Below, in pieces: positions 9,301-62,178 of a DNA stretch of 64,000 nt. Each line of letters begins with the position of its first letter. Position 1 is the first letter of the stretch. The notes below the pieces were generated by a model. That model saw only the letters and a program-made list of their open reading frames with translations. It searched no databases and was not told the DNA's origin. Source of the stretch: Eubacteriales bacterium. Lineage in GTDB: Bacteria; Bacillota; Clostridia; Oscillospirales; CAG-382. The stretch lies in the NCBI GenBank assembly GCA_045612545.1, contig JAZKZH010000005.1, positions 7,124 to 71,123 of the forward strand, given 5' to 3'. The position numbers and the translations under genes are program-made.

Positions 9301-9990
9301 TTACTCCTCCACCACCTCAAACTTATAGCCTACGCCCCAAATAGTCTTCAAGGTCCATTTTTCGGAAGCGCCCTCCAGCTTCTCCCTGAGACGCTTGATA
9401 TGCACGTCAACGGTACGGCTGTCGCCCAGATAATCAAAGCCCCAGACCTTATCCAAAAGCTGATCTCTGGTGAACACGCGGTTGTAATTGAAGGCAAGGA
9501 AGTAGATCAGCTCCAGCTCCTTGGGAGGCAGGTCAATGGCCTTACCCTTGATCTTCAGCTCATACTTCTGCAGAGAGATCTCCAGATTGTCAAACTTGAT
9601 CACCTCGCCGTCGGCATTGTCATGCTTGGCGTAGCGACGCAGGACAGCCTTGATACGGGCGCAGACCTCCTTCATATCAAAGGGCTTCACGATAAAATCA
9701 TCGGCGCCCAGCTCCAGACCCAAAACCTTATCAATGGTCTCCCCTTTTGCGGTGACCATGATGATGGGCTTGGAGGATTGCTTGCGGATCTCCTGACAGA
9801 CCTGCCAGCCATCCATGCGGGGCATCATAATGTCCAAAAGAACCAGATCCGGCTCGTAGGTGCGGAAAAGGCTGACACCCTCCATACCGTCCTGGGCGGT
9901 ACGGACATCGTAGCCCTCCTTTTGAAGATACATACAAAGAAGATCGCAAATATTGCTGTCGTCATCGATACAAAGAATGCGGGTTGCCAT
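9301..9990 (-). CDS. OmpR/PhoB-family response regulator
   Basis: 229 aa. Receiver domain (DDD...D54-like LLDIMMP, K in VTAKG) plus a winged-helix trans_reg_C domain (VWGFDY...RTVDVHIKRLREKL). Confidence 0.9.
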   Translation of the reverse strand: MATRILCIDDDSNICDLLCMYLQKEGYDVRTAQDGMEGVSLFRTYEPDLVLLDIMMPRMDGWQVCQEIRKQSSKPIIMVTAKGETIDKVLGLELGADDFIVKPFDMKEVCARIKAVLRRYAKHDNADGEVIKFDNLEISLQKYELKIKGKAIDLPPKELELIYFLAFNYNRVFTRDQLLDKVWGFDYLGDSRTVDVHIKRLREKLEGASEKWTLKTIWGVGYKFEVVEE

Positions 9991-10223
9991 AGAGAAACCT
10001 CCTATTTTTACTCTTGTTATTTTTATCCTTCTTTACAATAACAATATACCATATTATTTTCTTGTTGTCAATAGTTTTTCTCAAACAATTATAAATTTTA
10101 TTCAAAAAGAAATATGAAATAAAATTGTATATTGCAATCTGCAAGAAAATAGTGTATAGTATAGAATAGGAAATTATGAGATTTGATATATTCACATCAA
10201 AGAAACAGAGGTAACCTTTCGTT

Positions 10224-11318: not shown

Positions 11319-11402
11319 ATTCTTAAGAACTTTCCTTGGAAAAGAAAAGCTTTTAAGCGTCCTCTCGTAAAAAACAACAACCATAATGAAGGAGAAAATA
11401 CT

Positions 11403-13940
11403 ATGAAACTTTGCAAGAGACTGCTGCCTGCACTGCTGGCAGTTCTGCTGCTGATGGCTTCCCTGCCCTTTGCGGTATCCGCAGAAGAGGTAAGACAGAA
11501 GCTGAACGGCATCAACTGCTCCCGCGGTACCGGCGAGCTGATCGTCTACACCAGCGAATACGGCGCAACCACCGCCACCAACGAATGGGGCGGCGAGGCC
11601 GTAGTCGGCGCGGATAACGTGGTTATTTCCGTAGGCGGCAACAACAATAAGATCCCCGAGGGCGGTTTCGTTGTTTCCGGTCACGAAGCCAGCACGGGCG
11701 CTATGCGCACCTGGATCAGGAACAACATCCACGTGGGCGATTACGTATATTATAACGAGCGTACCATGACCCTCACCGTTTCCACCGAGCCCATCGACAC
11801 AAGAGGTGAGGTTTTCTACGACGTAGAAAAGACCTACAACGCCATCAACGCCACCCGCGGTGAAAACTATCTGGTGATCTACACCTCCGGAAGAGGCGCC
11901 ACCACCGGCACCAACGAATACGGCTACGAGATCATCGTTGAAGACGGCGTCGTGGTAAGCATGGGCGGCAACAACTCCGCCATTCCCAAGAACGGCTTCG
12001 TGGTTTCCGGCCACGGTTCCTCTCTGGATTGGCTGCAGAACAACGTGCTTCTGGGTATGGCGGCAAAGTACGACACCGCCACCAAGACCGTTACCTTCAG
12101 CTACAGCGCTGAAAGCCTTGAAAAGGGCATGGGCGTGATCCTGGGCGAGCTGACACCTATGCTGGCAAACGCCAAGGAGAACTTCATGTACATTCAGTAC
12201 GACGTGTTGGAGGCGGCCATCAAGGAGGCCGAGGAGGCCCTCGCCCAAGCCCTTGCCGCCCACAAGGACGGCAGTGGCGACTATGAGTTTGCGGCACAGT
12301 GCGCAGAGATCACCGACAAAGCCAACGCCATCCGCTACTCCATCTCCGAAAGCTACACCGTACAGTACCGCGCCGCTTGGGTTCGTCCCTCCCAGAAGAG
12401 CGCAAAGGAAGTGGAGGCTTACGTAAAAGAGCTTCACGATGCGGGCATCAACACCATCTGCGTGGAAGGCAACTTCAACAACGGCGTGATCATGAACACC
12501 CCCGAGGATTGCCTGTTCCAGCGGATCAAAACCTTCAATTACGACGTTCTGCAGGCCTACGTTGACGCCTGCCACAAGTACGATATGGAATGCCATCTGT
12601 GGATGGCCATCATGGAGGTAGGCCACAGCCAGGCTTCCTATTACTCTGACTGTATCGCATACAAGAAGCCGGAATGGCTTTCTCTCAGCCAAAAGGGCAC
12701 CCCCAACAACCCCGATGACTTCATGATGATCGACCCCGCCAACGATGAGGCACGGGAATATTTGGTTTCCTTCTACGAATACATCATCCGTAACTACGAT
12801 ATTGACTGCTTTGAATTGGACTACATCCGTTACTACACCAGAGGCGATCTGGACTTCGGTTACACCCAGGCGGCTTTCGATAAGTTCGAGGAGCAGTATC
12901 ATTACGGCGTGACCCCCACCTACGACACCTCTGCAAGCTACTGGGAGGATTGGAAGAAGTTCCGTATGTCCCAGGTTACCGAAATGGTAAAAGCAGTCCG
13001 TGAAATGGTTGACCGTGTTCGCCCCGAGGTATTGATCTCCGCAGACGTTGTTGCCACCGTGAACGGCGCTACCGAGTACAACTATCAGGACTACGTGACC
13101 TGGATGGAAAACGACTGGATCGACATTCTCCATCCCATGGCATACGGCGACGGCTTCGGCGATGATATCAAGGCGCAGGTAGCGCTGGGCGGCGATCAGT
13201 GTATGATCGTTACCGGTCTGGGCGTGTTCATGGCAGGTCTGGGCGCTTCCGACATGGTTCGTCAAGCAGTAGAGGACAACCTTTACGGCGCATACGGCGA
13301 TTGCTACTTTGAAGGCTCCGCTTATCTGAAGGACAAGGCAGGCCCCGCTTTGCTGGAAACCGTATACCGCAACGATGCCATCACCCCCTTCTTAGATCCC
13401 GATCTGGCCATCAAGACGGCCTTGGACTACATGGCAGGCAGAATCAACGACGTGCTGGTTCCCTTGAATGGTATTTCCGCTCAGGAGGGCGAAGAGCTGG
13501 TAGCATTGATCGGACAGCTGAAGGAGTCCGTAGCAGACAGCAAGATGGACGGACAGCTTTTGAAGGATCTGCACATGGCCATCAAGAAGATCGCCGGCAA
13601 GAACGCCAAGAAGGTTCTGGAAAGCGATCTTTACAGAGCAGAGATGATCACCTGCGTTACCTACAAGGTAGATCAGAACGAGCTGTTCGGTGAGCTGGAG
13701 CTTCCCGAGGGAGAACCCTTTGATCCCAACCCCGCCCCCAATCCCGGCGAGGGAGACACCTCCCAGGATGTCAGCGAGGACACCTCCGCCGAGGAATCCG
13801 CAGAGGAATCTCTCACCGAAAGCACCCTTATCGATCCTATCGACGATGATGGCAGCTCCACCACCCTGATCATCGTGATCTGCGTTGTGGTAGTTCTGGC
13901 AGGCGCTGCAGTGATCATCCTGATCCTGCGCAAGAAATGA
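11403..13940 (+). CDS. surface-anchored glycoside-hydrolase-like protein (GHL10/DUF187-like TIM barrel)
   Basis: 845 aa. Signal peptide. Two about 120-aa internal N-terminal repeats. YngK-like family-10-like hydrolase core. Acidic S/E/T linker and a C-terminal TM helix plus RKK. Confidence 0.6.
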   Translation: MKLCKRLLPALLAVLLLMASLPFAVSAEEVRQKLNGINCSRGTGELIVYTSEYGATTATNEWGGEAVVGADNVVISVGGNNNKIPEGGFVVSGHEASTGAMRTWIRNNIHVGDYVYYNERTMTLTVSTEPIDTRGEVFYDVEKTYNAINATRGENYLVIYTSGRGATTGTNEYGYEIIVEDGVVVSMGGNNSAIPKNGFVVSGHGSSLDWLQNNVLLGMAAKYDTATKTVTFSYSAESLEKGMGVILGELTPMLANAKENFMYIQYDVLEAAIKEAEEALAQALAAHKDGSGDYEFAAQCAEITDKANAIRYSISESYTVQYRAAWVRPSQKSAKEVEAYVKELHDAGINTICVEGNFNNGVIMNTPEDCLFQRIKTFNYDVLQAYVDACHKYDMECHLWMAIMEVGHSQASYYSDCIAYKKPEWLSLSQKGTPNNPDDFMMIDPANDEAREYLVSFYEYIIRNYDIDCFELDYIRYYTRGDLDFGYTQAAFDKFEEQYHYGVTPTYDTSASYWEDWKKFRMSQVTEMVKAVREMVDRVRPEVLISADVVATVNGATEYNYQDYVTWMENDWIDILHPMAYGDGFGDDIKAQVALGGDQCMIVTGLGVFMAGLGASDMVRQAVEDNLYGAYGDCYFEGSAYLKDKAGPALLETVYRNDAITPFLDPDLAIKTALDYMAGRINDVLVPLNGISAQEGEELVALIGQLKESVADSKMDGQLLKDLHMAIKKIAGKNAKKVLESDLYRAEMITCVTYKVDQNELFGELELPEGEPFDPNPAPNPGEGDTSQDVSEDTSAEESAEESLTESTLIDPIDDDGSSTTLIIVICVVVVLAGAAVIILILRKK

Positions 13941-14698
13941 GAAACCGTAATTTTTGGGAACCGTCCGTAGAGGCGGTTCCCTATTCTCTCCCCGCAAAGG
14001 GTCTTGCCTCCCCCGTGAAATTGGCATTTCTCTCCGATCTCCACGGGGAAGGACACGAAGAATGTCTGGCCCTCACGCGGGAATTTGCCCCCGACTTGGT
14101 GATCTTCGGCGGAGACACCTTTGACGAGCGGATATCCTTGAAGGGCGGGTTGAAGGCGCTTGAGGCGTTTCAAAAAGAGTTCCGCACTTTTTACGTTCCC
14201 GGCAATCACGAGATCAAAACCGGCAGGTACGATCTGGTAAAGCGGGCGGCAAGAGCCACGGGCGCTCGTCTGTTGGCAGGAGAAAACGCTTTGGTGGTGA
14301 TCGGAGAGAATCAGCTCCTGCTTTGCGGCGTGGAGGATCCCTTGCACCAAGAAGAGGTCTACAAAGAGCAGCTTTTAAACGCTTGCGAGGCGGCACGTCC
14401 CGATAGGTGTGCCTTGTTGATCACCCACCGTCCCGAACGGGCAAAGGACTACGCCGGATTGCCCTTCGATTTAGTGCTGACGGGCCACGCCCACGGCGGA
14501 CAGTGGCGGTTCTCCTTTTTGAAGGACGGCTTCTTGGCACCCGACGTGGGGCTGTTGCCCAAGTACACCGGAGGCATTTACGATCTGGCCGGCACGAAAA
14601 TGCTGGTCAGCCGCGGCCTTGCGGTGAAGAACACCCACGTTCCCCGCATCGGCAACCCGCCGGAGCTTTGCTTGGTGACGCTTGTGCCGAGGGAATAA
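13937..14698 (+). CDS. metallophosphoesterase
   Basis: 253 aa. Motifs SDLHGE, GGDTFD, GNHE and GHAHGG. ATGA overlap with the upstream gene. Confidence 0.85.
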   Translation: MRNRNFWEPSVEAVPYSLPAKGLASPVKLAFLSDLHGEGHEECLALTREFAPDLVIFGGDTFDERISLKGGLKALEAFQKEFRTFYVPGNHEIKTGRYDLVKRAARATGARLLAGENALVVIGENQLLLCGVEDPLHQEEVYKEQLLNACEAARPDRCALLITHRPERAKDYAGLPFDLVLTGHAHGGQWRFSFLKDGFLAPDVGLLPKYTGGIYDLAGTKMLVSRGLAVKNTHVPRIGNPPELCLVTLVPRE

Positions 14699-14770
14699 AT
14701 AGAACGTTTTACGAGGAACCCCTTTTTGAAAAAAGCGGTTCCCCGTACCCTTCCGTAAAAACTTTTCATG

Positions 14771-14808
14771 TAAAAAAGAACCTTCCGCAAAAGCAGAAGG
14801 TTCTTTTT
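14771..14808. terminator. bidirectional intrinsic terminator
   Basis: AGAACCTTC/GAAGGTTCT stem flanked by A- and T-tracts. A second 34-bp AT palindrome lies at 14857-14892. Confidence 0.6.
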
Positions 14809-14900
14809 TCTCTTCCCAAAAACGACAGTTTTTGGCATTGGATTTTCTTTTTTGTTAAACTTTTTTCTTTTTTCGAAAAGAAAAAAGTTTAGTTGCCCCC

Positions 14901-16202
14901 TTAAAGCACCATCCACAACCCCAAAAGTGCGGCCGCCATGGAAAGGAGGGACACGGGGGCGCAGTAGCGGATAAATTTACCGAAGGACATCTTCACCCCG
15001 TAGCGGGAAAGCAAGGACATCCACAAAATCCCTGCAAGTGCGCCGATGGGCGTAAGATAAGCACCCAAGTTAGATCCCGCCACGGCGGCGTACAATGCGC
15101 CTGCCGCCTCTGAGGAAGGCACAGCCCCTACCACGGCGGAATAAAACACGCTCATGGGAATGTTGTTCACCAGATTGGCGGCCAAGAAGGAAGTGGTGCC
15201 GAAGGTCAGCACGCTGTCCCCCTTGACCAGCAGGGAGGCCAGAGCTTCCGTAGCTCCCGCGCGTTGGAGCGCCAGCACGATCACGAACATAGAAAGCACA
15301 AAGGGAATGATCTCCCACGGGGCACGGCGGAAGGAATCTGTGATCATCCGAAGCCCCTTCTTCCCCGCCAGAAAGTACACCGTCATGGAAACGTATAAGC
15401 TCGCGAAGCACCAAAAGGTGATAAGCCACATGGGCAAATCCAGAAAGTTGGAGAATACCAGCAGAAGGATGCACACTGCCAAGTGCAAAATGGCGGTGAT
15501 CACAGCGGGCACATCCGCAAGGCGGGGCTGTTCCTCGGAAACAACCATTGGCTTTTGCAGCTTCTTACGGGACATAAGGTACAAAACCCCGAAGGATACC
15601 GATCCCGCAAGCAAAGTGGGCAACCACATCACCTGCAGATAGGAAAGGAAATCCACGCTCCCTGCGGTGCAAAGGCAGATATTGGTGGGGTTACCGATGA
15701 GAAGCGCCATGCTCCAGGTGTTGGCCGCCACGAACTCCGCCACCAAGAATGGCAGAGGGTCGATTTTCGCTCCTTTGGCAAAAAAGCACAGGAAGGGGGT
15801 GAAGGTCAAGATCACCACGTCGTTGGAGGTAAACACCGTCAACACCGCCACCATGAGGTACAGGCTGACAAACAACTTCTTTTGGCTATGCCCCGCGTGG
15901 TGAAGTACCTTTACCGCCAGCCAGCGGAAAAAGCCCGCTTGGTCAAGAAATACGGAAAGCAACGTCATGGAAAGGAACAGCACCAAAAGCTGCAGGGGGT
16001 TGATCCCTCCGCTTTGGGTAAGACCTGCCCAGATCTCTTCCCCACTGATGCTGCCGAAAAGCCACAAAAGCACCCCGCCGATGACAGGGGCGAACCAATA
16101 GGTACTGATAAAATGCCCACGGATGGACACCGACGGAAAGAAAAACACCAGCCCCAGCATGGCGATACACGCCACGGCGGCAATGAAAACGGTAACGAGC
16201 AT
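14901..16202 (-). CDS. ArsB/NhaD-superfamily anion/ion permease
   Basis: About 433 aa and polytopic. The start is taken at the ATG at 16202, preceded by a GGAGG RBS. Citrate-transporter-like/ArsB-like pattern. Confidence 0.65.
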   Translation of the reverse strand: MLVTVFIAAVACIAMLGLVFFFPSVSIRGHFISTYWFAPVIGGVLLWLFGSISGEEIWAGLTQSGGINPLQLLVLFLSMTLLSVFLDQAGFFRWLAVKVLHHAGHSQKKLFVSLYLMVAVLTVFTSNDVVILTFTPFLCFFAKGAKIDPLPFLVAEFVAANTWSMALLIGNPTNICLCTAGSVDFLSYLQVMWLPTLLAGSVSFGVLYLMSRKKLQKPMVVSEEQPRLADVPAVITAILHLAVCILLLVFSNFLDLPMWLITFWCFASLYVSMTVYFLAGKKGLRMITDSFRRAPWEIIPFVLSMFVIVLALQRAGATEALASLLVKGDSVLTFGTTSFLAANLVNNIPMSVFYSAVVGAVPSSEAAGALYAAVAGSNLGAYLTPIGALAGILWMSLLSRYGVKMSFGKFIRYCAPVSLLSMAAALLGLWMVL

Positions 16203-16348
16203 ACTGCGCCTCCAACAAGATTCTCTCATTTATACCCCTTTTTTCGCCGTTCGTCAAGGGGTTTTTCCGATTTTCTGTTGACAAATCACCTGTTTTTATG
16301 GTATACTGCCATGGTATAAACAGTAACGTATAAGGAATGGTAATCACA

Positions 16349-17575
16349 ATGACAGTCTATGAAGATCTTCAATGGCGCGGCTTGATCGAGAGCATCTCCG
16401 ACCCCGTATTGATCGACAAATTGAATCAGGGAGGCTTGACCTTCTACATCGGTACAGACCCCACGGCTGACAGCCTGCATTTGGGGCATTACTCCTCTTT
16501 TCTCATTACCCGCCGTTTGGCAGAGGCAGGTCATCATCCTCTGATCCTGGTGGGCGGTGCAACCGGCTTGGTGGGCGACCCCAGAGGTACCGTGGAACGC
16601 GCCCTCTCCCAAAAAGAAGTGGTCTTCCGCAACTTTGAGGCGCTGAAGGCTCAGGTACAGAAGCTGTTCCCCTACCCCGTGGTGAACAACTACGACTGGA
16701 TCAAGGACATGAACGTTCTGGACTTCTTCCGTGACATCGGTAAGTTCATCAACGTGGGCTATATGCTCAGCAAGGATCACGTGAAGCGTCAGATGGAGAC
16801 GGGTATCTCCTACGCCGAGTTCTCCTATATGCTGATCCAGGGCTACGACTTCAAGTATCTCCACGAGCATATGAACGTGGATCTCCAGGTGGCAGGCTCC
16901 GACCAGTGGGGCAACATCACCACCGGCATCGAGCTGATCCGCAAGACTACCGGCGACACGGTCTACGCCATGACCATGCCCCTGATCACCGACTCTCAAG
17001 GCAACAAGTTCGGCAAGTCCGAGGGCAACGCAGTTTGGCTGGATAAGAACAAAACCTCCTCTTACGAGCTGTATCAGTTCCTTTTGAACGCAGAGGACGT
17101 GATGGCAGTTCCCTATCTGAAGAGACTCACCTTCCTCTCCCGCGAGGAGATCGAGGAGATCGAGCGTCAGCACAACGAACAGCCCCATCTCCGCCTGGCA
17201 CAGAAGGCCTTGGCCAAGGAGATCATCACCGACCTCCACGGTGAGGGCGCATACGAGGAAGCCGTTCGCATCAGCGAGCAGTTGTTCTCCGGGGACATCA
17301 AGTCCATCCCTCCCCAGGATCTTCTGGCAGGGCTGAAGAACGTGCCTCACTTTGAGATTCCCGAGGGCACCCGTCTGCTGGATGCCTTGAAGCTGGGCGG
17401 CGCCGCATCCTCCAACCGCGAGGGCAACGATTTCCTGAAGGCAGGTGCTGTCTCTCTCAACGGCGATATTGAGAAGGACGGCAACGTTCTGTTGACCAAG
17501 GAAAACGCCATCGACGGCAAGTTCGTGGTCATCCGCAGAGGTAAGAAGAAATACTACGTAGCAACCTTCTGCTAA
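16349..17575 (+). CDS. tyrS: tyrosine--tRNA ligase
   Basis: HIGH-type motif (SLHLGH), KMSKS-type motif (KFGKS) and a C-terminal S4-like domain. Confidence 0.95.
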   Translation: MTVYEDLQWRGLIESISDPVLIDKLNQGGLTFYIGTDPTADSLHLGHYSSFLITRRLAEAGHHPLILVGGATGLVGDPRGTVERALSQKEVVFRNFEALKAQVQKLFPYPVVNNYDWIKDMNVLDFFRDIGKFINVGYMLSKDHVKRQMETGISYAEFSYMLIQGYDFKYLHEHMNVDLQVAGSDQWGNITTGIELIRKTTGDTVYAMTMPLITDSQGNKFGKSEGNAVWLDKNKTSSYELYQFLLNAEDVMAVPYLKRLTFLSREEIEEIERQHNEQPHLRLAQKALAKEIITDLHGEGAYEEAVRISEQLFSGDIKSIPPQDLLAGLKNVPHFEIPEGTRLLDALKLGGAASSNREGNDFLKAGAVSLNGDIEKDGNVLLTKENAIDGKFVVIRRGKKKYYVATFC

Positions 17576-40468: not shown

Positions 40469-41083
40469 ATGAACGTATTACTATGTATTATTTTGGGATA
40501 TTTGCTGGGCTCCTTGAACCCTGCGGCATTGATCGGGAAGCTCAAGCAGTTTAACCTGCGGAAGCACGGCACGGGGAATTTGGGCGCTACCAACGTACTG
40601 CTGAACTTCGGCAAGGGGTTTGCCGCGGTGGTGATGCTGTTCGACATCTTCAAGGCTTTTGCGGCCTTCCATTTAACCTCTCTGTTCTGCGGGGAGATTG
40701 AAATTGCTCCCTATTTGGCAGGAACGGCGGCCATTGTGGGACACATCTTCCCCTTCTATTTGAAGTTCAAGGGCGGGAAGGGCTTGGCCTCCTTCGGCGG
40801 GTTTGTACTGGCGGTGGATCCCAAGGTGTTCTGCTTCCTTTTAGTCACCGGTGTTATCGCCATGCTGGTGGTGAATTACAGCGTTGCCCTGCCCTATTTT
40901 GCGGGGATCGCCTTCCCTGTCTTTATGTGGATCTTAAAGAAAAGCGTGCCGGTGATCGCGGTCTGCTCTGCGGTCAGCGGGTTGATCCTGTATAAGCACA
41001 GAGGGAACATCAAAAAGGCCATGGACGGCACGGACAACAAGATCCGCGAATACGTGGCCACGAAATTGTTTGCGAAAAAGTAA
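40469..41083 (+). CDS. plsY: glycerol-3-phosphate acyltransferase PlsY
   Basis: 204 aa. GSLNPA...HGTGNLGATNV motif. AAGGAGG RBS. Confidence 0.9.
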   Translation: MNVLLCIILGYLLGSLNPAALIGKLKQFNLRKHGTGNLGATNVLLNFGKGFAAVVMLFDIFKAFAAFHLTSLFCGEIEIAPYLAGTAAIVGHIFPFYLKFKGGKGLASFGGFVLAVDPKVFCFLLVTGVIAMLVVNYSVALPYFAGIAFPVFMWILKKSVPVIAVCSAVSGLILYKHRGNIKKAMDGTDNKIREYVATKLFAKK

Positions 41084-41471
41084 AGAAACAGGAATTTGAC
41101 TAAACAAACGGAAGATCCATACGTGCAGGAATGTTTTTCCCGCCAAAATCACAGTTTATCTCCCGTTGGCTCCTTCCACCACCAGCGGTGGTCCCCCTCC
41201 CTCTCGGAGGGAGGCTTTTCGGCACGGACAACAAGATCCGCGAATACGTGGCGACGAAATTGTTTGCGAAAAAGTAAAGAAACAGAAATTTGACTAAACA
41301 AACGGAAGATCCATAAGTGCAGGAATGTTTTTCCCGCCAAAATCACAGTTTATCTCCCGTTGGCTCCTTCCACCACCTGCGGTGGTCCCCCTCCCTCTCG
41401 GAGGGAGGCTTTTCGGCACGGACAACAAGATCCGCGAATACGTGGTCACGAAATTGTTTGCGAAAAAGTGA
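41027..41471 (+). repeat. 194-bp tandem repeat (2.3 copies) that includes the last 19 codons of plsY
   Basis: Units start at 41027, 41221 and 41415 (GGCACGGACAACAAGATCCGCGAATACGTGG...). Only 4 mismatches between full units. The third copy ends in TGA and runs into the terminator at 41472-41500. Confidence 0.9.
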
Positions 41472-41506
41472 GAAAAAGACCTCGATGGAGGTCTTTTTTC
41501 GATGGC

Positions 41507-41830
41507 AATAGGAACCTCATCCACCATTGCGGGAATTGAGAAAACCTGTTTTACCCGACCTGGAAATTCCCGCAATAGTCCCCCTTCCCCAAAGGGGAAG
41601 GCAAGAGCCCGCCGTTGGCGGGCGAAAAAGAGAGTTCAATCGTGCGCAGCCAAAAGTTATGGCGAGAAAAATAGAAATTCTTTTTTCGCCCCGCAGGGGC
41701 ATACGATAATTCCCGCTTGCGAAGCAAGCATCTTGCCTTCCCCTTTGGGGTAGGGGGACCGGCGTGGGGCGGAAAGAGCAAGAAAAACAGCACTTAATAT
41801 TCTCCCGCGATGGTGGATGAGGTTCCTATT
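41507..41830. mobile_element. MITE-like palindromic element, copy 1
   Basis: About 29-bp terminal inverted repeats AATAGGAACCTCATCCACCATTGCGGGAA / TTCTCCCGCGATGGTGGATGAGGTTCCTATT. Inner inverted repeat GTCCCCCTTCCCCAAAGGGGAAGGCAAG. No ORF. Confidence 0.7.
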
Positions 41831-42005
41831 AAACGGGCGATTCGTGAATCGCCCCTACTTGCTTGCCGTTGTTCGCCAACTTGGGATGAGGCTCCTATTG
41901 AGGTTCCTTTTCCCCGCACAAAAAACACCCCGGCAGACTGCAATCATCTGTCGGGGCATTCTTATCCTTTGTACCGTTTTTCCATTTCTTCCAAATCGTA
42001 GTCCG

Positions 42006-42042
42006 GGAATACGTGGCGACGAAGCTGTTCGTAAAAAAATAA
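42006..42042 (+). repeat. fourth, diverged copy of the plsY 3' tail
   Basis: GGAATACGTGGCGACGAAGCTGTTCGTAAAAAAATAA encodes ..EYVATKLFVKK*. Followed by a strong bidirectional terminator at 42049-42085. Confidence 0.7.
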
Positions 42043-46407: not shown

Positions 46408-46650
46408 GGAACCTCATCCACCGTACGCAAGCGTACGGTCCCCCTTCCCCATGGGGGAAGGTTAGCACACCTGCGGTGTGCGAAAAAGGCTTTCAATCGT
46501 GCGTAGCCAAAAGTTATGGCGAGAAAAACAAAAATTCTTTTTCCGCCCCGAAGGGGCATACGATAAATTTCCGCCTCCCCTTTAGGGGGGCCTCGCCTTC
46601 CCCTCTGGGGATAAGGGTAGCTCCCAAAGGGAGCGGATGAGGTTCCGAAT
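46404..46650. mobile_element. MITE-like palindromic element, copy 2
   Basis: Ends AAGGAACCTCATCCAC / GCGGATGAGGTTCC. Shares an about 75-nt core (46492-46566) with copy 1 (41635-41709). Begins at the GNAT stop codon. Confidence 0.7.
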
Positions 46651-55497: not shown

Positions 55498-55638
55498 GAA
55501 GATATGTGTTTTTACGAGCGGAACTCTTTTTGCAGAAAAAGGGTTCCGCTTTTGCTCTCCGGGGAGAAACGCCCTCATCGCCACAACCTTTTCGGGATAT
55601 AAAAAGCAAAAGCGGAGTGAACTCACTCCGCTTAAGTT

Positions 55639-56667
55639 TTATACAATTCCCAATGCAAATTCAACCCCAAGGGCTACAACAACTACAAGCGCCGATATAA
55701 CGAAGCCATGTATCATAGGTTTGATTCCTGATTTTTTCATATCCTTGAATGACGTGTTGAGACCGATTGCGGCCAGGGCGCAAACCATCAAAAATTTACT
55801 GATCTGTTTTGTCCCGGCAACTATTTCGGCAGGGATGGTGAAGATACTTGCTACAATGGACATCGCCAAAAAGCCTAAAATGAACCAGGGGAAGATTTTG
55901 GCAAAGCTAAAATTGGTTTTAATTTCTTTTTCGTTTTCTCCGCTTTTGATGGCTTCTTTTCTTTTGAGGTTCATTTGAATCAAAGCAAAGGTCAAAACGG
56001 TAGGAATAATGGAAAGAGTGCGGGTGAGCTTCACCATGGTGGCAAAATCGCCGGCGGCCTCAGAAAAAGCATAGCCTGTCGCTACCACGGAAGAGGTATC
56101 GTTAACCGCTGTTCCTGCCCAAATGCCAAAAGCTTCGGCGCTCATACCAATCGCTCTACCCATAATCGGGAACAATACGATCATCGCCATATCGAACAGA
56201 AACGTGGCAGACATAGCGTATGCAACGTCACTGTCCTCGGCGTCAATGGTAGGTGCAATCGCAGCGATGGCCGAACCGCCACAGATTCCCGTTCCTGCAG
56301 AAATAAGGTTGGAGAGCTTCCAGTTTAGCCCCAAAGCCTTGCCGATAAAGTAACCCCCGCCGAAACAGGTGGCGAGCGTAAAAATCATAACCACAAGGGA
56401 CATTTTACCAACGTACAAAATTGTGTTGATGTTCAAAGAAAGACCAAGCAGTATAATGGCAAATTTAAGGATTTTCTTCGATGTAAATTTAACACCCGAC
56501 GCAATAAAGCTTTTCTTGCCAATAAAATGATTGACGATCATACCGATAAACATGGCAATGACGGCTCCGCCAATCAAATGAATCGGCAAAAGATTTTCTA
56601 TAAAAGTTGCCACCGCCGCTATTGCAACCGATAAAGCAATACCCGACAAAAATTTTATCGCTTTCAT
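55639..56667 (-). CDS. YeiH/UPF0324-family membrane protein (putative sulfate-exporter family)
   Basis: 342 aa, polytopic, AT-rich codon usage. Confidence 0.7.
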   Translation of the reverse strand: MKAIKFLSGIALSVAIAAVATFIENLLPIHLIGGAVIAMFIGMIVNHFIGKKSFIASGVKFTSKKILKFAIILLGLSLNINTILYVGKMSLVVMIFTLATCFGGGYFIGKALGLNWKLSNLISAGTGICGGSAIAAIAPTIDAEDSDVAYAMSATFLFDMAMIVLFPIMGRAIGMSAEAFGIWAGTAVNDTSSVVATGYAFSEAAGDFATMVKLTRTLSIIPTVLTFALIQMNLKRKEAIKSGENEKEIKTNFSFAKIFPWFILGFLAMSIVASIFTIPAEIVAGTKQISKFLMVCALAAIGLNTSFKDMKKSGIKPMIHGFVISALVVVVALGVEFALGIV

Positions 56668-56839
56668 AAGAAACTCCCAAAATAAATTTTATATATTGTA
56701 TAACAATATTGTATCACAATATTGTATCACGATCGGCATAAAAAGTAAATAGTCACAGTATATTTTTTCTTGCAATAGGATGAGCTTCCCGATTGAGAAA
56801 TTGAAAAAAAGCGAGGGGAAACACCCCTCGCTTGATGTA

Positions 56840-57322
56840 TCACTGCTTTTCCGCATGATGCTTTTCGGCACAACCGTTGCAAATATTGCGATATCTTGTT
56901 CCCATATCATCTTTGATCTTGCAATATACAAGGCGCTCAAAGTGCTTGCCGCACAGTTCGCATTTCAGTCCGTCAGCCTTCTCAACGTCTACCGCCACTT
57001 CTTCCTTTTCCTCGTCTTTTACTTCGGTAGTTGCATTGGAAGTACGAACTTGATTGTCTGTCTTTGCCGCTTCCGGTGCTATCCGGTTGCGGATTGCGTG
57101 CACGTCTTCCACAAGCTCACCGAAGGCATACAAAAACCAAGAAGATACCCAAGCGAAAAGCGGGATCACGATCCATGAAAGGAAACCGTACAGAATCAAA
57201 TCCTCATCGGTTACCATCAAGACAAAACCCGTAATGAGAGCCGCGATTGCCTCGACCACAAAAAGAATCATCGCCAAAAATTTAATTTTGCCGCCAATGT
57301 TTTTAAAGAATTTTTCGCCCAT
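56840..57322 (-). CDS. hypothetical membrane protein with C-terminal zinc-ribbon
   Basis: Start at the internal ATG (MGEKFFKNIGG). Two TM helices, an acidic linker, and CELCG...CNGC. Confidence 0.5.
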   Translation of the reverse strand: MGEKFFKNIGGKIKFLAMILFVVEAIAALITGFVLMVTDEDLILYGFLSWIVIPLFAWVSSWFLYAFGELVEDVHAIRNRIAPEAAKTDNQVRTSNATTEVKDEEKEEVAVDVEKADGLKCELCGKHFERLVYCKIKDDMGTRYRNICNGCAEKHHAEKQ

Positions 57323-57472
57323 ATACAAAGCCTCCGAAACGTTTTTTCTTTTATTGTAGCACGCAAAAAATAAAATGCAAGACTTTTTGACAAAAAAACA
57401 CGCAACTATTGACTTCCCGGACATCGCGTGCTATAATTTACCCGTAATTTCACCATTTCCAGGAGGCTTCTT

Positions 57473-58306
57473 ATGGAAGAAAAAAATGGCAAAACCGAAA
57501 CTTCGTTCTTCAAGAAAAACTTTAACTATCCCATTTTGCTCTTTGCTTTGATCTCCCTAACCAACATCTCCAGCATTTACAATTCCATAATCGGCATTTT
57601 CAAATATCCCGGCGCCATTGTTAGCATACTTGCAAATCTTATCTTATACGTAACCCCCATTGCCATCGCAGTGTTTTTGTGGTTGTACAAAAATAAGGGG
57701 TTCGAGAAAGCTTCTATCGCCATTGCTGCGGTTTTGTCTGCCGCAACACTGCTGACAGCATACAGTTGGATCCGAACGGTCATAAATAGCTTCTCCTATC
57801 TCTCTTTTGATATTGAGTTTGTCATCGGGCCGTTGCCCAATCTGTTGGGAACACTTTTCTACATTATTATTTGCGCTATCTTGGTATTCAATTTGTTTGC
57901 CAATCGTAAAAACTACGGTGCATTTTATGTGTTGCTGGTTTTGTTCATTGTAGAACTGTGCTTCTTCGGACTCTTAAGAACTTACGCTGCAGTTTTGGAC
58001 ATGGGTTCCGCAAGCTCCGCATTCTCTTGCTTCTTTGACGTATTGCTCGCGTTGGCCATTTGGTATATTCCCGGCGCCATCAACAATCCTCCCGCCGCAG
58101 AATTGTCCACCGGAAAGGCAAAAGCCTTGGCCATGATTGCTGCTGTGGTAGTCGGCCTCTATTTCATTGCTTCGGCAGCAGCAGGCGGCCCCTCCGGCGG
58201 CAGCGATAGCTACTGGGACGATTACGACGATAACCATGACGGAAAAATCGATGACAACGAATTCGGCGACGGATGGAAGGATTATGTGGACGATTTCCTG
58301 AACTAA
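57473..58306 (+). CDS. hypothetical polytopic membrane protein with C-terminal EF-hand-like loop
   Basis: 277 aa with about 7 TM helices. The C-terminal DDNHDGKIDDNE matches the canonical 12-residue EF-hand loop. Confidence 0.55.
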   Translation: MEEKNGKTETSFFKKNFNYPILLFALISLTNISSIYNSIIGIFKYPGAIVSILANLILYVTPIAIAVFLWLYKNKGFEKASIAIAAVLSAATLLTAYSWIRTVINSFSYLSFDIEFVIGPLPNLLGTLFYIIICAILVFNLFANRKNYGAFYVLLVLFIVELCFFGLLRTYAAVLDMGSASSAFSCFFDVLLALAIWYIPGAINNPPAAELSTGKAKALAMIAAVVVGLYFIASAAAGGPSGGSDSYWDDYDDNHDGKIDDNEFGDGWKDYVDDFLN

Positions 58307-58331
58307 CGCTCGTCTAAAAATTCATCTCAAC

Positions 58332-58602
58332 ACAAAAGTATAAATCTCCTTGTTTTACAGATACTATTATCAGCAACTGTAAAGCAAGGAGATTTTATAT
58401 ATGAAAGCAACAGGAATCGTTAGAAGAATCGACGACCTGGGTCGCGTCGTTATCCCCAAGGAGATCCGCCGCATCTTGCGAATCCGTGAGGGAGAGCCCT
58501 TACTGACAATATTGACACTTTTCGACAAGTTTTGTTTAGCGATACATAGTGTGGTAGAAAGATATAATGAGCAGAGAAATTAAACTCTCTGCTCGTTTTT
58601 TT
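58332..58602 (+). repeat. spoVT-5' module A (hairpin, RBS, 60-aa ORF, terminator)
   Basis: Homologous over its full length to 59908-60173. Homologous over the RBS plus the first 99 coding nt to spoVT at 60963-61094. Confidence 0.9.
58401..58583 (+). CDS. 60-aa SpoVT/AbrB N-terminal-like protein (short paralog A)
   Basis: The first 33 residues match SpoVT (one substitution, S25I). Then a novel 27-aa tail that is 15/27 identical to paralog B. Own stop codon inside the terminator hairpin. Confidence 0.5.
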   Translation: MKATGIVRRIDDLGRVVIPKEIRRILRIREGEPLLTILTLFDKFCLAIHSVVERYNEQRN

Positions 58603-58867
58603 GTAAGATGTTGACTTTTTATATCTTTTGTGATAAAATAATTATGCCAAACTAATTGAATAAAATCAGACAAGAGCTTTTTATATTTAAGGCTCTATTT
58701 GTGCATCCTATTATCATAAGGTGAATTTGATAAAAACGCAAATCTCCCCTTGTGATAACTTGATGTATGTTCTTGTCTTATCCAATTAGTTTGGCGACTA
58801 TTGGAGTTTGCGTTTTTTGTGCGGTTACTTCGGTAGTCGCACTTTTTATTTTACGGAGGAAAAGAAA

Positions 58868-59842
58868 ATGAAAAAAGCAATTAGTTTATTGTTGGCGGTA
58901 ATGCTGGTTTTGTCTCTTTCTGCTTGTGGTGGTAACGAGACTACCCACACCCATAGTTATTCTGATGCAACTTGTGCTGCACCAGCAAAATGTTCTTGCG
59001 GTGCAACCAATGGTAGCGCTTTAGGACATAGTTATAGTAATGCTACTTGCACCGAGGCTAAAAAGTGTTCTCGTTGTGGTGCAACCAATGGTAGTGCGCT
59101 TGGTCACAGTTATAAAGATGCAACTTGCACAGAACCCAAGACTTGTACCAAGTGCGGCGCAACCAATGGCAGTGCGCTTGGTCACAGTTATAAAGATGCA
59201 ACTTGCACAGAACCCAAGACTTGTACCAAGTGCGGTGCAACTAGTGGTAATGCTTTGGGGCATAAGGAAGTGGTTGATAAAGCTGTGTCTGCAACATGTA
59301 CTAAAGCTGGACTTTCAGAGGGTAAGCATTGTTCGACTTGCAATACGGTTATAGTCGCTCAAGAAACTATCCCTGCAACACATCAATATGCCGATGCAAC
59401 CTGTACCGAACCACAGAAATGCAAACTTTGTGGTTCAACTTATGGGACTCATAATGGTCATGACTTTTCTCGAAGCAACTCCTGTTCTTCTTGCGGAATG
59501 TGGTTAAGCGACCTTTTTGATATTACTTATTCTAGTGGAAGTTACAACCGAGGAGATAGAAATTCTGATTTTGCATCTATTTCAATAACAAGTTGTTCTC
59601 AAAAATATTACAGTTACAACAATTCTGTTACCTTAACTATTAAAGCGACTGGTAAAATGATTTATACATGGTCATATATGAGACCTGGTGTTGTTTCGTA
59701 TCAGATTGGTTTATACAAAGATGGTGTTTTATATGCGACTAGTAGTACGGGATATGTGAATTGTCAAAAAGGAGAAACTGATTCAGAAACTTTTTACATA
59801 TACGATGTAGAACCAGGAACATATACTATAAAAATACTTTAA
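58868..59842 (+). CDS. lipoprotein with tandem 26-aa Cys-rich repeats (cassette 1 cargo)
   Basis: Start at MKKAISLLLAVMLVLSLSAC. Four or more repeats of GHSY-x-DATCTEPKTCTKCGATNGSAL. AT-rich. Confidence 0.75.
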   Translation: MKKAISLLLAVMLVLSLSACGGNETTHTHSYSDATCAAPAKCSCGATNGSALGHSYSNATCTEAKKCSRCGATNGSALGHSYKDATCTEPKTCTKCGATNGSALGHSYKDATCTEPKTCTKCGATSGNALGHKEVVDKAVSATCTKAGLSEGKHCSTCNTVIVAQETIPATHQYADATCTEPQKCKLCGSTYGTHNGHDFSRSNSCSSCGMWLSDLFDITYSSGSYNRGDRNSDFASISITSCSQKYYSYNNSVTLTIKATGKMIYTWSYMRPGVVSYQIGLYKDGVLYATSSTGYVNCQKGETDSETFYIYDVEPGTYTIKIL

Positions 59843-59907
59843 CTATCCAAAACACAATAATTAAGGAAAAGTTTATGCTAACATAACGACTTTATCAAAT
59901 ATAATTT

Positions 59908-60173
59908 ACAAAGTATAAATCTCCTTGTTTTACAGATACTATTATCAGCAACTGTAAAGCAAGGAGAATTTATATATGAAAGCAACAGGAATAGTTAGAA
60001 GAATCGACGATCTGGGTCGCGTCGTTATCCCCAAGGAGATCCGCCGCAGCTTGCGGATCCGTGAAGGCGAGCCTTCTCATACCTCATTGACACCTTTTGG
60101 TAAGTTTTGTATTTCGATACATAGTGTTTTGAAACGATATAAAGAACAAGCGAGGTGAAATCACCTCGCTTTT
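59908..60173 (+). repeat. spoVT-5' module B (hairpin, RBS, 60-aa ORF, terminator)
   Basis: See module A. The terminator AGCGAGGTGA/TCACCTCGCT is bidirectional. Confidence 0.9.
59976..60158 (+). CDS. 60-aa SpoVT/AbrB N-terminal-like protein (short paralog B)
   Basis: The first 33 residues are identical to SpoVT; all 9 differing codons are synonymous. Its tail is homologous to the tail of paralog A. Confidence 0.5.
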   Translation: MKATGIVRRIDDLGRVVIPKEIRRSLRIREGEPSHTSLTPFGKFCISIHSVLKRYKEQAR

Positions 60174-60178
60174 GAAGT

Positions 60179-60871
60179 TTATTTATTGTAGTGCATATAC
60201 AAATTAGCAAGTGTATGGTTCATAGCTTTGAGTTTATCAAGTTCGCAATTCATATATGACCATTCATATGCTTTTTTTGAAAAACCCATTATTTCTAAAT
60301 GCTTATATGAACGATAAAAATCATATTCGCTTTCAGAAATAGCAGTAATATTTTTTATTTGATTATCTTCAAATTTAGCAATAAAACCATGAACAATAAC
60401 ACGATTGTCATCTCGCATAAATCCAAGCACATAATATGATTTTGTAACCCTGTCAAACTCTATATGGTTCACCATCATATCTTCACCTAACAAAACTTGA
60501 TTGGCAAGAGAAAAATCAGTTGTATCATAAACCGATATAGCAGAGTGCAAACCATCTTTTTGACGTTCTACATTGAAAAACAATTTTCCGTCGGGAGAAA
60601 AACAAAAACCATCGTCTTGTGCTCCGTCAACCTTTGAGAAACGGAACTTTTTAATTAAAGACAATGTTTCCAGAGAATATATCGCAAGTCTGCCATCTGT
60701 AGATTTGACGACAAATAATGTTCCATCTGGCGAAATCATAGGCGTATAACCGTAAATTATATCTTTGAATTTGCCTAACTCATTACCGTCCTTATCATAT
60801 AAAAATACAGTTTGTCCTGTACAACCAACAGAAAAGTCGTTATTGGATACATAGCCCCAAAACTTTCTCAT
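60179..60871 (-). CDS. hypothetical protein with SPDG-type beta-propeller-like repeats (cassette 2 cargo)
   Basis: 230 aa. Repeated ISPDG/FSPDG-K-LF motifs. No signal peptide. AT-rich. Confidence 0.6.
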   Translation of the reverse strand: MRKFWGYVSNNDFSVGCTGQTVFLYDKDGNELGKFKDIIYGYTPMISPDGTLFVVKSTDGRLAIYSLETLSLIKKFRFSKVDGAQDDGFCFSPDGKLFFNVERQKDGLHSAISVYDTTDFSLANQVLLGEDMMVNHIEFDRVTKSYYVLGFMRDDNRVIVHGFIAKFEDNQIKNITAISESEYDFYRSYKHLEIMGFSKKAYEWSYMNCELDKLKAMNHTLANLYMHYNK

Positions 60872-60995
60872 ATAATCACCGCCTTTATTTTATTGTATCA
60901 CACTTTTTCCACAAAGTAAATAGGTATAGTATAATCCCCCACTTTTTGCAAATAATAACACCACAAATGTAAAAGCAAGGAGATTATTATATATT

Positions 60996-61532
60996 ATGAA
61001 AGCAACAGGCATTGTACGCCGCATCGACGACCTGGGTCGCGTCGTTATCCCCAAGGAAATCCGCCGCAGCTTGCGAATCCGTGAAGGCGAGCCGCTGGAG
61101 ATCTTTACCAACGAGGAGGGGGGCGTGGTGTTCCGCAAGTACTCCCCCATCGGCGAGGCGGGAAGCTTTGCGGGAGAATACGCAGAGGCGATCTACAAAT
61201 CCGCGGGAATCGCGGTAGCGGTGTGTGACATGGACGGCGTGATCGCAGTGGCAGGCGCGCCAAAGAAGGATTACCTTTCCCATCCGCTGACCCCTTCCCT
61301 CGCCGCCTTGCTGGAGGGGCGCAGACCTTATTCCGCCACGGCGGACGGCACCCCCATCCGCGCCACGGAGCAGGCAAACGAGCTGGTTTCCTACTTTGCT
61401 CCCATCATTAGCGAGGGAAATCCCGCAGGGGGCGTGATGATGCTTTCCAAGGACACCGCCTCTCTCGATGAGACGGCGAAAAAGCTGGTGAACACGGGAG
61501 CAATGTTTCTGTCCTCGCAGATGCAGATATGA
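60996..61532 (+). CDS. spoVT: stage V sporulation protein T (AbrB-type N-domain plus GAF-like C-domain)
   Basis: 178 aa. MKATGIVRRIDDLGRVVIPKEIRRSLRIREGEPLEIF swapped-hairpin domain plus a SpoVT-type C-terminal domain. GC-rich host codon usage. Confidence 0.9.
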   Translation: MKATGIVRRIDDLGRVVIPKEIRRSLRIREGEPLEIFTNEEGGVVFRKYSPIGEAGSFAGEYAEAIYKSAGIAVAVCDMDGVIAVAGAPKKDYLSHPLTPSLAALLEGRRPYSATADGTPIRATEQANELVSYFAPIISEGNPAGGVMMLSKDTASLDETAKKLVNTGAMFLSSQMQI

Positions 61533-61569
61533 TAGCAAAAAGGACTTCACAGCGAAGTCCTTTCGTATT

Positions 61570-62178
61570 TTAGCGACTGTATCCGCACGCGGTGCAGACA
61601 CCGTTTTTGTAGGTATGGCTCTTGGTCTTGCCAATGGTGTAATTGCAGGAATCGCACACCCTTTGGTGGCCGTCCGAGGTAGAGGCATAGGTCTGGTAGG
61701 GGTGCAGGAAGAGGTAATCCCAAAGCTTATTCATATCCACGTAGCGGAACACGGTTTTCTCCGGCAAGGTCAGCGAGGTGACCTCGTAGACACCCACAGT
61801 GTTGTTCGGCCCCATGCAGGCAAAGAACATCACGTGGGCGTTGTCCCCGGGCTTTAAGAAGACGTCCATCTCCTTCATATCGTAGACGGATTTCACCTGA
61901 TGACCGTACTTGGTGAGATGGTAGGGCGCGGACCAATGGTAAGGCTCGTCGGTACCCGACCCACTATCCACAAATTCCCAAGCGGCGCAGACAAAGGCGG
62001 AGCAATCCAGCCCCACGGTGTAGGGCTGATGCCCCACGTCGGGGTTGACGTTACCGGTGGTGTAATAGGAGCTTGTGCCAATGGTTGCCACCGCAACGTT
62101 GGCAAAGCTGTCCTTGCCGTAATAGGAATGGGGGTTAAAGCCGCCGCGGCAATAGGGAATACCGGTATAGGATACCAT
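61570..62178 (-). CDS. NlpC/P60-like cysteine peptidase domain protein, leaderless
   Basis: 202 aa. GIPYCRGG and GLDCSAFV catalytic-Cys motifs. C-terminal H-TY-x-x-G-x-CTACG motif. No signal peptide and a weak RBS, so it may be a remnant. Confidence 0.5.
   Translation of the reverse strand: MVSYTGIPYCRGGFNPHSYYGKDSFANVAVATIGTSSYYTTGNVNPDVGHQPYTVGLDCSAFVCAAWEFVDSGSGTDEPYHWSAPYHLTKYGHQVKSVYDMKEMDVFLKPGDNAHVMFFACMGPNNTVGVYEVTSLTLPEKTVFRYVDMNKLWDYLFLHPYQTYASTSDGHQRVCDSCNYTIGKTKSHTYKNGVCTACGYSR

Follow-up and report, generated by a model that had tools for sequence, protein, structure and literature searches.

In a 64,000-nucleotide stretch of DNA from a member of the Eubacteriales (GenBank assembly GCA_045612545.1, contig JAZKZH010000005.1, positions 7,124 to 71,123; hereafter the window), the start of the sporulation regulator gene spoVT occurs repeatedly, and its copies are interspersed with low-GC genes of unrelated type. 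The preferred explanation, to which a probability of roughly 55% is given, is a horizontally exchanged cassette array built by replacement of the spoVT 5′ end and reshuffled mainly by homologous recombination between its modules, with an additional, putatively precise event at nucleotides (nt) 95/96 of the gene. N33 denotes the start of spoVT downstream of the ribosome-binding site (RBS), that is, its first 33 codons (32–33 across the family), and a module is a promoter, N33, a tail and a terminator. Each repeat unit carries, in order, a sigma-G-like promoter, an RBS with 32–33 codons, a tail of 24–27 codons whose frame closes within a strong bidirectional terminator, and cargo on either strand; the last N33 copy runs into intact spoVT. 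In the proposed mechanism, an insertion would displace one copy of promoter and N33, which becomes capped by tail and terminator, while a fresh promoter and N33 beside the gene body would keep SpoVT functional. Cassettes would enter, leave and cross genomes via recombination between module copies (N33, tail plus terminator, or promoter block). Most of this reshuffling would be host homologous recombination, and the modules would mostly be scars of former spoVT starts. The junction at nt 95/96 may be created or kept by a precise event whose enzyme is not encoded nearby.

The window contains two such modules (A and B) ahead of the functional gene (copy C), all three in the same orientation. In a three-way alignment, the reading frames agree up to codon 33; beyond it, A and B have a tail in common, and only C proceeds into spoVT. 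A repeat finder returns a 239-nt direct repeat of A and B (58335–58573 and 59910–60148, 88% identity) and a 99-nt family in three copies (58400–58498, 59975–60073 and 60995–61093, 90–94% identity). The open reading frame (ORF) of module A encodes 60 amino acids (58401–58583, plus strand), with N33 at 58401–58499 and the 27-codon tail at 58500–58583; that of module B, also of 60 amino acids, spans 59976–60158 (plus strand), with N33 at 59976–60074 followed by the tail. Both ORFs are corroborated by the alignment, the repeats and Pfam. Predicted terminator-like hairpins close the two tails: in A at 58566–58597 (plus strand), where the left arm encodes the last codons of the ORF, and in B at 60148–60171, where a bidirectional hairpin, AAGCGAGGTGAAATCACCTCGCTT, is common to the module and the neighbouring gene (cargo 2). 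Many genomes have a hairpin of this sequence type after their tails. Two occurrences of the tail pattern are found in the window, where 0 would be expected by chance. Copy C is full-length spoVT (60996–61532, plus strand, 178 amino acids; terminator 61539–61563) and matches both PF04014 (E=1.1e-10) and PF15714 (SpoVT_C, E=1.9e-30) within one protein of about 180 amino acids. A and B match PF04014 (MazE_antitoxin, an AbrB-type domain) only at profile positions 1–28 of 48 and are therefore not full members of the SpoVT family. The copies differ from each other at 4–6 positions in codons 10–33, A and B differ from C at 7 of 15 nt in codons 5–9, and GC content is 0.30–0.46 across the cassettes compared to 0.55–0.63 in spoVT and beyond. 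A first-pass annotation made from the sequence alone had described the three direct spoVT starts of which only C is full-length, the common tail, stop and terminator of A and B, the uneven identity and the low-GC cassettes, and all of these were recovered.

Modules of the same design recur in many related genomes. A protein search with the 60-residue product of module A yields at least 120 cluster representatives of 55–97 amino acids, most of them 57–75, which cover at least 90% of the query at 81–91% identity, including the tail consensus LLTTLTPFDKFCxAIHSVVERY. In a DNA scan, the tail pattern is found in 43 species-level genomes from Acutalibacteraceae, Oscillospiraceae or unclassified Clostridia, all of them metagenome-assembled and from the ruminant gut where the source is labelled; a metagenome scan for the tail adds only 7 further contigs. 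By its nearest relatives, the window probably belongs to a gut bacterium of the Acutalibacteraceae type. In the isolate Vescimonas fastidiosa MM35, a diverged module (tail SQMTLEQWEKFCFAMLALSKRW) is separated from the downstream spoVT by 12.4 kb, in which about ten genes for metabolism and regulation are located. This locus (L051; related loci are given L numbers) corresponds to NZ_AP023416.1 815385–828478, on an 861-kb replicon labelled as a plasmid. Mapping of N33, tail and spoVT remainder by tblastn reveals one to five co-oriented modules per array together with 5′-truncated, tail-only copies, at spacings from 469 nt to several kb and in units of 0.5–12 kb. Modules lie upstream of spoVT and on the same strand in all 27 arrays with spoVT in the fetched DNA, and spoVT is intact in every array. 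The neighbourhood beyond spoVT varies by genome (ribosomal protein genes, rpsO-pnp, abrB, gpsA), indicating that the association is with spoVT itself. A phage or satellite origin of the module was considered and rejected: the tail pattern has 0 matches among IMG/VR viral contigs, and matches in phage collections cover N33 only.

Inspection of the spoVT locus in the relatives shows that the cargo is hypervariable. Clustering of 108 cargo ORFs, drawn from about 45 arrays, gives 90 clusters, which include Fic, WYL-WCX, AAA+ ATPases, an SNF2/DrmD-like helicase, VWA/SLH surface proteins and an acyltransferase, as well as many without a match. The related arrays L001 and L011 differ by whole cassettes, and cassette content varies within a species. 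Empty sites without any module occur in relatives whose SpoVT is 74% (L054) or 70% identical (L055–L064, ten samples); here, spoVT directly follows a divergently transcribed housekeeping gene. Only one cassette is widely shared. This Fic cassette (312 amino acids) is 79–96% identical at the nucleotide level in six genomes, whereas the adjacent spoVT remainders are 52–62% identical in nucleotides and 33–53% in amino acids, with the exception of the sister pair L020/L049 (79% and 78%, respectively). For instance, L014 and L030 share the cassette at 95% and the spoVT remainder at 58%. As the cassette is so much more similar than spoVT, it must have been transferred horizontally between deeply diverged hosts and to the same address. 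N33 to the left of the cassette is 0.86–0.96 identical to the functional N33 of its own host and 0.72–0.85 to those of other hosts, and the cassette is bounded by two tails, the second of which lacks an N33/tail junction. Blocks of tail, cargo, promoter and N33 are kept as units and then continue into a tail in one genome and into the spoVT body in another. In the window, the block comprising tail, cargo 2, promoter and N33 aligns with L049 at 69% over 1024 nt, and the homologue of cargo 2 belongs to cluster 12.

A duplication of old, local origin, passed on vertically without any mobility and homogenised by gene conversion, would explain why codons 10–33 are nearly identical in A, B and C next to differing flanks and why N33 identity is raised within arrays (0.85 against 0.76). 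This explanation is very improbable: almost every genome has its own cargo, empty sites are present in close relatives, the similarity of the Fic cassette between genomes far exceeds that of spoVT, and cassette content varies within a species. Mobility would be contradicted by an identical array in all relatives and by a lack of module copies elsewhere; clearly neither applies, given the cargo turnover, the empty sites, the recurrence of the module and the transfer of the Fic cassette. The proposal in the first-pass annotation of tandemly accreted site-specific insertions is thus partly supported. Exchangeable units are borne out by relatives with empty sites, one to five modules, nearly always different cargo, and transfer. 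Site-specific insertion is at most a candidate: the sharp boundary at nt 95/96 argues for a precise junction, but variable breakpoints in N33 and ragged, 5′-truncated tail copies reveal a large share of homologous recombination and deletion. Gene conversion between local copies, named there as the alternative, is also real and accounts for the near-identity of codons 10–33 in the window, where conserved codons beside diverged flanks are its typical signature.

Homologous recombination between N33 copies is directly visible. Ten contigs encode the identical module protein P0112 and are 100% identical over a block that begins inside N33, passes the tail and reaches into the Fic cassette. To its left, this block meets five different promoters and contexts, the breakpoints being at approximately nt 22, 31, 67 and 73 of N33. 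In the same population, contigs differ in whether one promoter and 5′-N33 unit stands at a module or at the functional gene. The breakpoint between L001 and L011 likewise falls inside N33, so that scattered breakpoints, as in displacement of the rhs/cdi type, are present within N33. Within arrays, N33 identity is bimodal: some pairs are at ~0.95, others at 0.71–0.80, which equals the between-genome background. The low-identity pairs differ almost only at synonymous sites and have identical or near-identical translations, which argues for an additional influx of foreign N33 copies. The left ends of tail-only copies are heterogeneous, as deletions would leave them.

In contrast to these variable breakpoints, a sharp linkage boundary is found at nt 95/96. 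Tail type (LL or SH at codons 34–35) is linked to nt 99 (p=0.001), with no link at nt 93 or further left. In modules that are nearly identical to their own spoVT, mismatches concentrate at nt 96/99 (8 of 16; binomial p=0.004), and GAT as codon 32 is seen in 6 of 26 functional copies and in 0 of 41 modules (Fisher p of ~0.002, calculated by hand). Between genomes, tails of 95% identity can adjoin N33 ends of just 64% identity, each of which matches its own host. Contigs of the window's own species (SpoVT 99% identical) differ from it by 8 mismatches in spoVT nt 1–99, by 3 in nt 100–537 and by many upstream. Divergence exactly after codon 33, as initially described, holds for the reading frame, while the linkage boundary lies ~4 nt earlier. 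A fixed exchange point, GGNGA|CCC, would account for these data. A step in sequence divergence that halts heteroduplex extension might account for them as well, and the weak linkage that extends from the tail into N33 nt 67–99 (rho 0.16) fits it better. A literal target-site duplication of N33, both ends of which are linkage boundaries, is a further possibility, but the N33 pairs of low identity within arrays speak for the arrival of foreign copies too.

The same boundary brings in an alternative modelled on integrons and the staphylococcal cassette chromosome (SCC), in which a site-specific recombinase supplied in trans acts at the N33/tail junction, circular cassettes of tail, cargo, promoter and N33 integrate and excise, and homologous recombination is secondary. 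Such an enzyme would explain why one and the same junction is found in all modules of all genomes, why tails and N33 ends part company at nt 95/96, why the copies are strictly co-oriented and why transfer between genera always reaches the same target. It would also agree with invariant nucleotide blocks in the tail, which are not due to coding and have no RNA structure, and with a possible circular intermediate. Locus L023 (1–7410) has a 121-nt exact terminal overlap, equivalent to a circular assembly path of ~7.29 kb. Two modules, the Fic cassette and five further genes are present on it, and spoVT is absent; the contig may be a multi-cassette circle after excision or, alternatively, a tandem duplication that collapsed in assembly. 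However, the variable N33 breakpoints, the heterogeneous left ends of tail-only copies, the Fic cassette whose second tail has no junction, and the weak but real linkage from the tail to N33 nt 67–99 argue against a fixed site, the viral contigs hold no matches, and a common junction could be plain inheritance by descent. Nor is there a tyrosine or serine recombinase signature in the 649 kb of arrays and flanks. Screens of the window and these fetched loci for the corresponding motifs (a motif heuristic, with Pfam on a subset) gave only implausible matches, in agreement with the earlier remark that no recombinase is present in cis. No element-encoded integrase or ccr was found among about 70 loci, and no recombinase among the cargo families (Pfam on representative cargo and precomputed neighbour labels). 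An enzyme in trans as the main agent is a distinctly weaker candidate than host recombination. An integron-equivalent system in Clostridia, in which the spoVT start is the docking site, the tail is the cassette site, exchange occurs at GGNGA|CCC and an essential forespore regulator is rebuilt with each insertion by the promoter and N33 at the end of the cassette, is equally tentative; to our knowledge, integrons are essentially absent from this phylum.

The promoter block offers a possible reason for the tolerance of insertions at this locus. All copies share GTATA, a 17-nt spacer and (G/A)ATAnTA, which we take to fit the sigma-G/sigma-F consensus; in Bacillus subtilis, spoVT depends on sigma-G. 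In module A, promoter and leader (58336–58400, plus strand) consist of a −35 element GTATA (58338–58342), the 17-nt spacer, a −10 element GATACTA (58360–58366) and an RBS (58386–58391). The corresponding elements of module B (59911–59975, plus strand) are at 59913–59917, 59935–59941 and 59961–59966. Copy C is preceded by a divergent block (60872–60995) with a sigma-A-like promoter for cargo 2 (60920–60892, minus strand) and a sigma-G-like promoter for spoVT (−35 at 60929–60933, −10 at 60951–60957). The promoter spacer is complementary to the RBS and forms a 23-bp hairpin in module A that pairs the Shine–Dalgarno (SD) sequence. Its predicted energy is −27.6 kcal/mol in both A and B, which have the same hairpin (z −7.7 and −7.3), −12.3 in C, where it is weaker (60925–60995, z −2.7), and −17.2 at the empty-site relative L054 (3945–4017, z −4.1). 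The region upstream of C is akin to that of A and B, with the same promoter and SD-pairing inverted repeat in diverged form. Transcription is predicted to start downstream of the left arm, and the hairpin should therefore form only in read-through RNA. Judged from the sequence, it would block translation of SpoVT from foreign upstream transcripts and help the locus tolerate insertions. Hairpin and terminators together may insulate SpoVT from foreign transcription and the cargo from sigma-G transcription.

Two forms of the promoter block exist. The H form, which adds a divergent sigma-A-like promoter serving a neighbouring gene on the minus strand, occurs at empty sites, in many modules and, in the window, at C; the divergent block of C also precedes spoVT in L054. 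The compact E form, present at A and B, is almost invariant across genomes and is unchanged between the sisters L036 and L043, although their N33 differ by ~15% (estimated by eye). The "element-type" arm that had been proposed for A and B was misread in part, since relatives with an empty site have the same promoter architecture natively at spoVT. The spacer between RBS and ATG was also compared by eye with Xer/dif sites, in particular Bacillus dif. The AT-rich spacer of some copies resembles the XerD half; the candidate was rejected because the XerC arm is mismatched and the stretch is not conserved among copies.

Further insertions are seen in the N33 copies and their leaders. An element termed R, of 170–190 nt with two small GC hairpins and TCATTCAT repeats, is inserted after ~nt 13 of N33 and ends in its own RBS, ATG and ~13 nt, which rebuilds the frame and leaves a 16-codon upstream ORF. 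It is found in L073 (~880–1081), L074 (~2230–2416), L076, L020 (upstream of spoVT) and L049 (upstream of 3763), and within the same population it is located at modules in some contigs and at functional spoVT in others. The R element is a miniature of the same 5′-end replacement. In addition, GC-rich palindrome pairs resembling repetitive extragenic palindromes (REP/REPIN-like; GTAGGGGAGGG...CCCTCCCCTAC) are recurrently inserted between the −10 element and RBS of N33 copies (L002 ~9925–9990, upstream of both modules in L023, L009 ~3160–3250, L030 ~7350–7440, L037, L042, L078 ~400–470). They are mostly in displaced modules and once at functional spoVT (L030).

The two parts of the module ORF evolve differently. 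N33 is constrained in modules as in functional spoVT (entropy at codon positions 1/2/3 of 0.33/0.06/1.33 and 0.33/0.06/1.42, respectively). In the tail, entropy is nearly even over codon positions within Acutalibacteraceae (0.48/0.50/0.77), a pattern that also holds in modules not selected by the search pattern, and the blocks ACAACATTGACAC and GCGATACATAGTGTGG are invariant, third codon positions included. Several explanations of the tail were examined. A structured RNA was set aside, as RNAalifold on 38 tails gives no consensus pairs and Rfam has no family in 55500–61600 at E<=1. A 4-bp helix between codons 40 (L/P) and 43 (K/R) was dropped because the four combinations are about equally frequent (by hand). 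The tail as a promoter (TCGACA-17-CATAGT) is speculative, and its transcription would enter the terminator directly.

Residues not otherwise seen occur in 11 of 41 modules and in 2 of 26 functional copies (p=0.06), and modules, many of them truncated or interrupted, decay by loss of the start codon (two cases), N33 deletions, small GC-rich palindromic leader insertions and loss in sister genomes. Owing to these signs of relaxed constraint and frequent decay, most modules are read as relics of earlier spoVT starts that were displaced, rather than as genes the cell needs. The 60-residue product could instead be a real protein under selection, a forespore-expressed partner or antagonist of SpoVT composed of half an AbrB-type domain and an amphipathic helix, with foreign genes gathering between the paralogues. 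This is unlikely, although it is partly compatible with the other explanations. Its N33 has the same protein-level constraint as functional spoVT, most modules retain an intact frame of 57–60 amino acids with promoter, RBS and terminator, and the V. fastidiosa tail, diverged in DNA, keeps the hydrophobic pattern. AlphaFold2 predicts an amphipathic helix for residues 40–59 with a predicted local distance difference test (pLDDT) score of 74–80, but the overall pLDDT of 66 is low, and 33 residues alone cannot form the swapped-hairpin fold of AbrB-type domains. The decay is frequent and lineage-specific (deleted N33, lost starts, leader insertions), close relatives lack any module, and the nearly even variation of the tail is not protein-like. 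The constraint on N33 is also expected from recent service as a true spoVT start.

Several observations weigh against the preferred explanation of an exchanged cassette array. A recombinase was not detected (heuristic motif screen, Pfam on a subset), nor was an excision junction or a transfer vehicle. All relatives but one are metagenome assemblies, which are broken by repeats, and the window's closest relatives are on contigs of 1.1–1.6 kb. Beside near-identical E blocks, N33 shows only background similarity between genomes, so N33 does not simply travel with a cassette. The E block as a mobile arm with its own N33 was discarded on the same grounds, as well as for the unchanged E block of L036 and L043 beside differing N33 and for the same architecture ahead of spoVT at empty sites. 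Native-type promoter blocks are found on the left or on the right, both orders being present, and simple serial insertion is therefore insufficient without further recombination. Lastly, modules as mere scars do not account for the invariant stretches of the tail, including their third codon positions.

In the window, the variable region extends over ~56.7–61.0 kb and comprises four cargo genes and three module remnants ahead of spoVT. The span from A to C is as first described, while a further decayed module and two cargo genes lie to its left. Low GC content begins near 55.5 kb, to the left of the region described earlier. The left flank encodes a PF03601 (YeiH-like) membrane protein of 342 amino acids (55639–56667, minus strand; E=4.6e-75), whose gene is 79% identical in nucleotides to one that directly abuts an intact module in L016. 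A bidirectional terminator, AAGCGGAGTGAACTCACTCCGCTT, at 55610–55633 marks the left edge of the low-GC region 3′ of this gene; it resembles the tail terminators in sequence type, and an adjoining tail remnant is not recognizable. Next to the PF03601 gene, the decayed module 0 (about 56716–56833, plus strand) contains a divergent promoter block (ATTGTATCAC..AAAAAGTAAAT..AGTATA) that aligns to the promoter of the intact module at the same position in L016. Its degenerate RBS runs directly into a terminator hairpin (56809–56833), indicating that N33 and tail were deleted. Two cargo genes follow, a low-GC gene for a 194-residue protein (56840–57424, minus strand) with no Pfam or PADLOC match, and a gene for a 277-residue membrane protein (57473–58306, plus strand) with a sigma-A-like promoter (57409–57437) and no significant family match.

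Cargo 1, between A and B (58868–59842, plus strand), encodes a lipoprotein with 26-residue Cys-containing repeats and has no Pfam or PADLOC match. Its gene includes at least three 78-nt tandem repeats (58996–59229) with the pattern C-x-x-C-G-A-T-N-G-S-A-L-G-H-S-Y. Cargo 2 (60179–60871, minus strand) encodes 230 amino acids with weak beta-propeller matches, and a homologue is found at the same place in L049. PADLOC gave no defence match for the four cargo genes of the window, and exact-protein look-ups of its SpoVT, module A, cargo 1 and cargo 2 matched no record. In L001, after the last module in the fetched DNA (9750–16849), an AAA+ ATPase, a 1153-residue SNF2/DrmD-like helicase, a MoxR-type ATPase and a DUF2201/VWA protein are encoded in a run with weak PADLOC matches, and an upstream cassette carries a WYL-WCX regulator. 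The cargo therefore seems to include defence-like systems. Elsewhere in the window, a 194-nt unit is present in 2.3 tandem copies of 98% identity (41026–41476), which cover an ORF at its 3′ end (...KIREYVATKLFAKK*). Another 571 nt downstream lies a fourth copy, which is incomplete (42002–42042). An 84-nt direct repeat of 89% identity (41626–41709 and 46483–46566, 4.9 kb apart; ...GCCAAAAGTTATGGCGAGAAAAA...CGCCCCGCAGGGGCATACGATAA) may be a common leader or terminator element.

If the proposed cassette exchange is correct, spoVT provides gut Clostridia (Acutalibacteraceae and Oscillospiraceae of ruminants and humans) with a widespread and unnoticed route to gather and exchange accessory genes, including surface proteins, Fic enzymes and proteins that weakly match anti-phage defence models. 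The gene would act as a fixed and insulated chromosomal address, where terminators cap the displaced starts and a putative read-through hairpin would mask the RBS. It would also allow cassette exchange to be tested where no recombinase is present in cis, with the culturable carrier V. fastidiosa MM35 as a possible experimental model. There are consequences for annotation as well: 60-residue ORFs are labelled 'AbrB/MazE/SpoVT family' or 'stage V sporulation protein T', so that sporulation genes are miscounted, and module repeats break metagenome assemblies at spoVT.

A number of known systems resemble the spoVT arrays in part. Like skin (sigK), SPbeta (spsM) and yin (yabG), the arrays place foreign DNA at a sporulation gene of an endospore former. 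Those elements split their gene and are excised in the mother cell by their own recombinase, whereas spoVT, which acts in the forespore, the germ line, is never split and is uninterrupted in every array. A 28–30-bp dif-like boundary site, as in Xer-dependent elements (integrative mobile elements exploiting Xer, IMEX, and pdif modules), was not found by eye. Orphan arrays of rhs and cdiA likewise combine a full-length gene with displaced fragments, a shared homology block and no dedicated recombinase. In those arrays, a variable 3′ end is accompanied by an immunity gene; here the 5′ end is repeated, the product is unchanged and the cargo is unrelated.

Integrons and clusters of attC sites lacking integron integrases (CALINs) share with the spoVT arrays ordered, small and mostly single-gene cassettes, a repeated site, a hypervariable pool and sharing between distant hosts; here, too, cassettes are split by a repeated site and cargo is shared between hosts. 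Unlike in integrons, the cargo lies on either strand with its own promoters, and the repeat holds a promoter and a translated gene start. A tyrosine recombinase motif indicative of intI was not detected in the 64-kb window or the 649 kb by the motif heuristic, which is not a full hidden Markov model scan. As for attC, the tail is conserved in sequence, has no RNAalifold structure in 38 tails, and only the terminator is palindromic. SCC elements at rlmH (orfX) of staphylococci are also stacked at a gene end, with gene-derived repeats, recombinase-less members and variable cargo. SCC occupies a 3′ end, has repeats of ~15–20 bp and relies on the serine recombinases CcrAB or CcrC, which recombinase-less pseudo-SCC elements must obtain in trans. 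In contrast, the spoVT arrays occupy a 5′ end, have repeats of 100–240 nt, and no recombinase was found.

Replacement of the target end is known from SXT/R391 elements (at prfC) and dusA islands, which keep the target intact via a replacement promoter and 5′ codons, leave the displaced end as a direct repeat and can form tandem arrays. The same is seen at spoVT, which remains intact, with its displaced end as a direct repeat and empty sites available for comparison. SXT/R391 elements and dusA islands span tens of kb and carry their own tyrosine integrase with transfer or mobilization functions; the units at spoVT are 0.5–12 kb, without a recombinase found, are capped by tail and terminator, and target a sporulation regulator. 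A literature search on spoVT in connection with cassettes, islands, hotspots and intervening or mobile elements returned no description of this arrangement. As far as that literature goes, the cassette layout at the spoVT start is a previously undescribed variant of known cassette and island designs.

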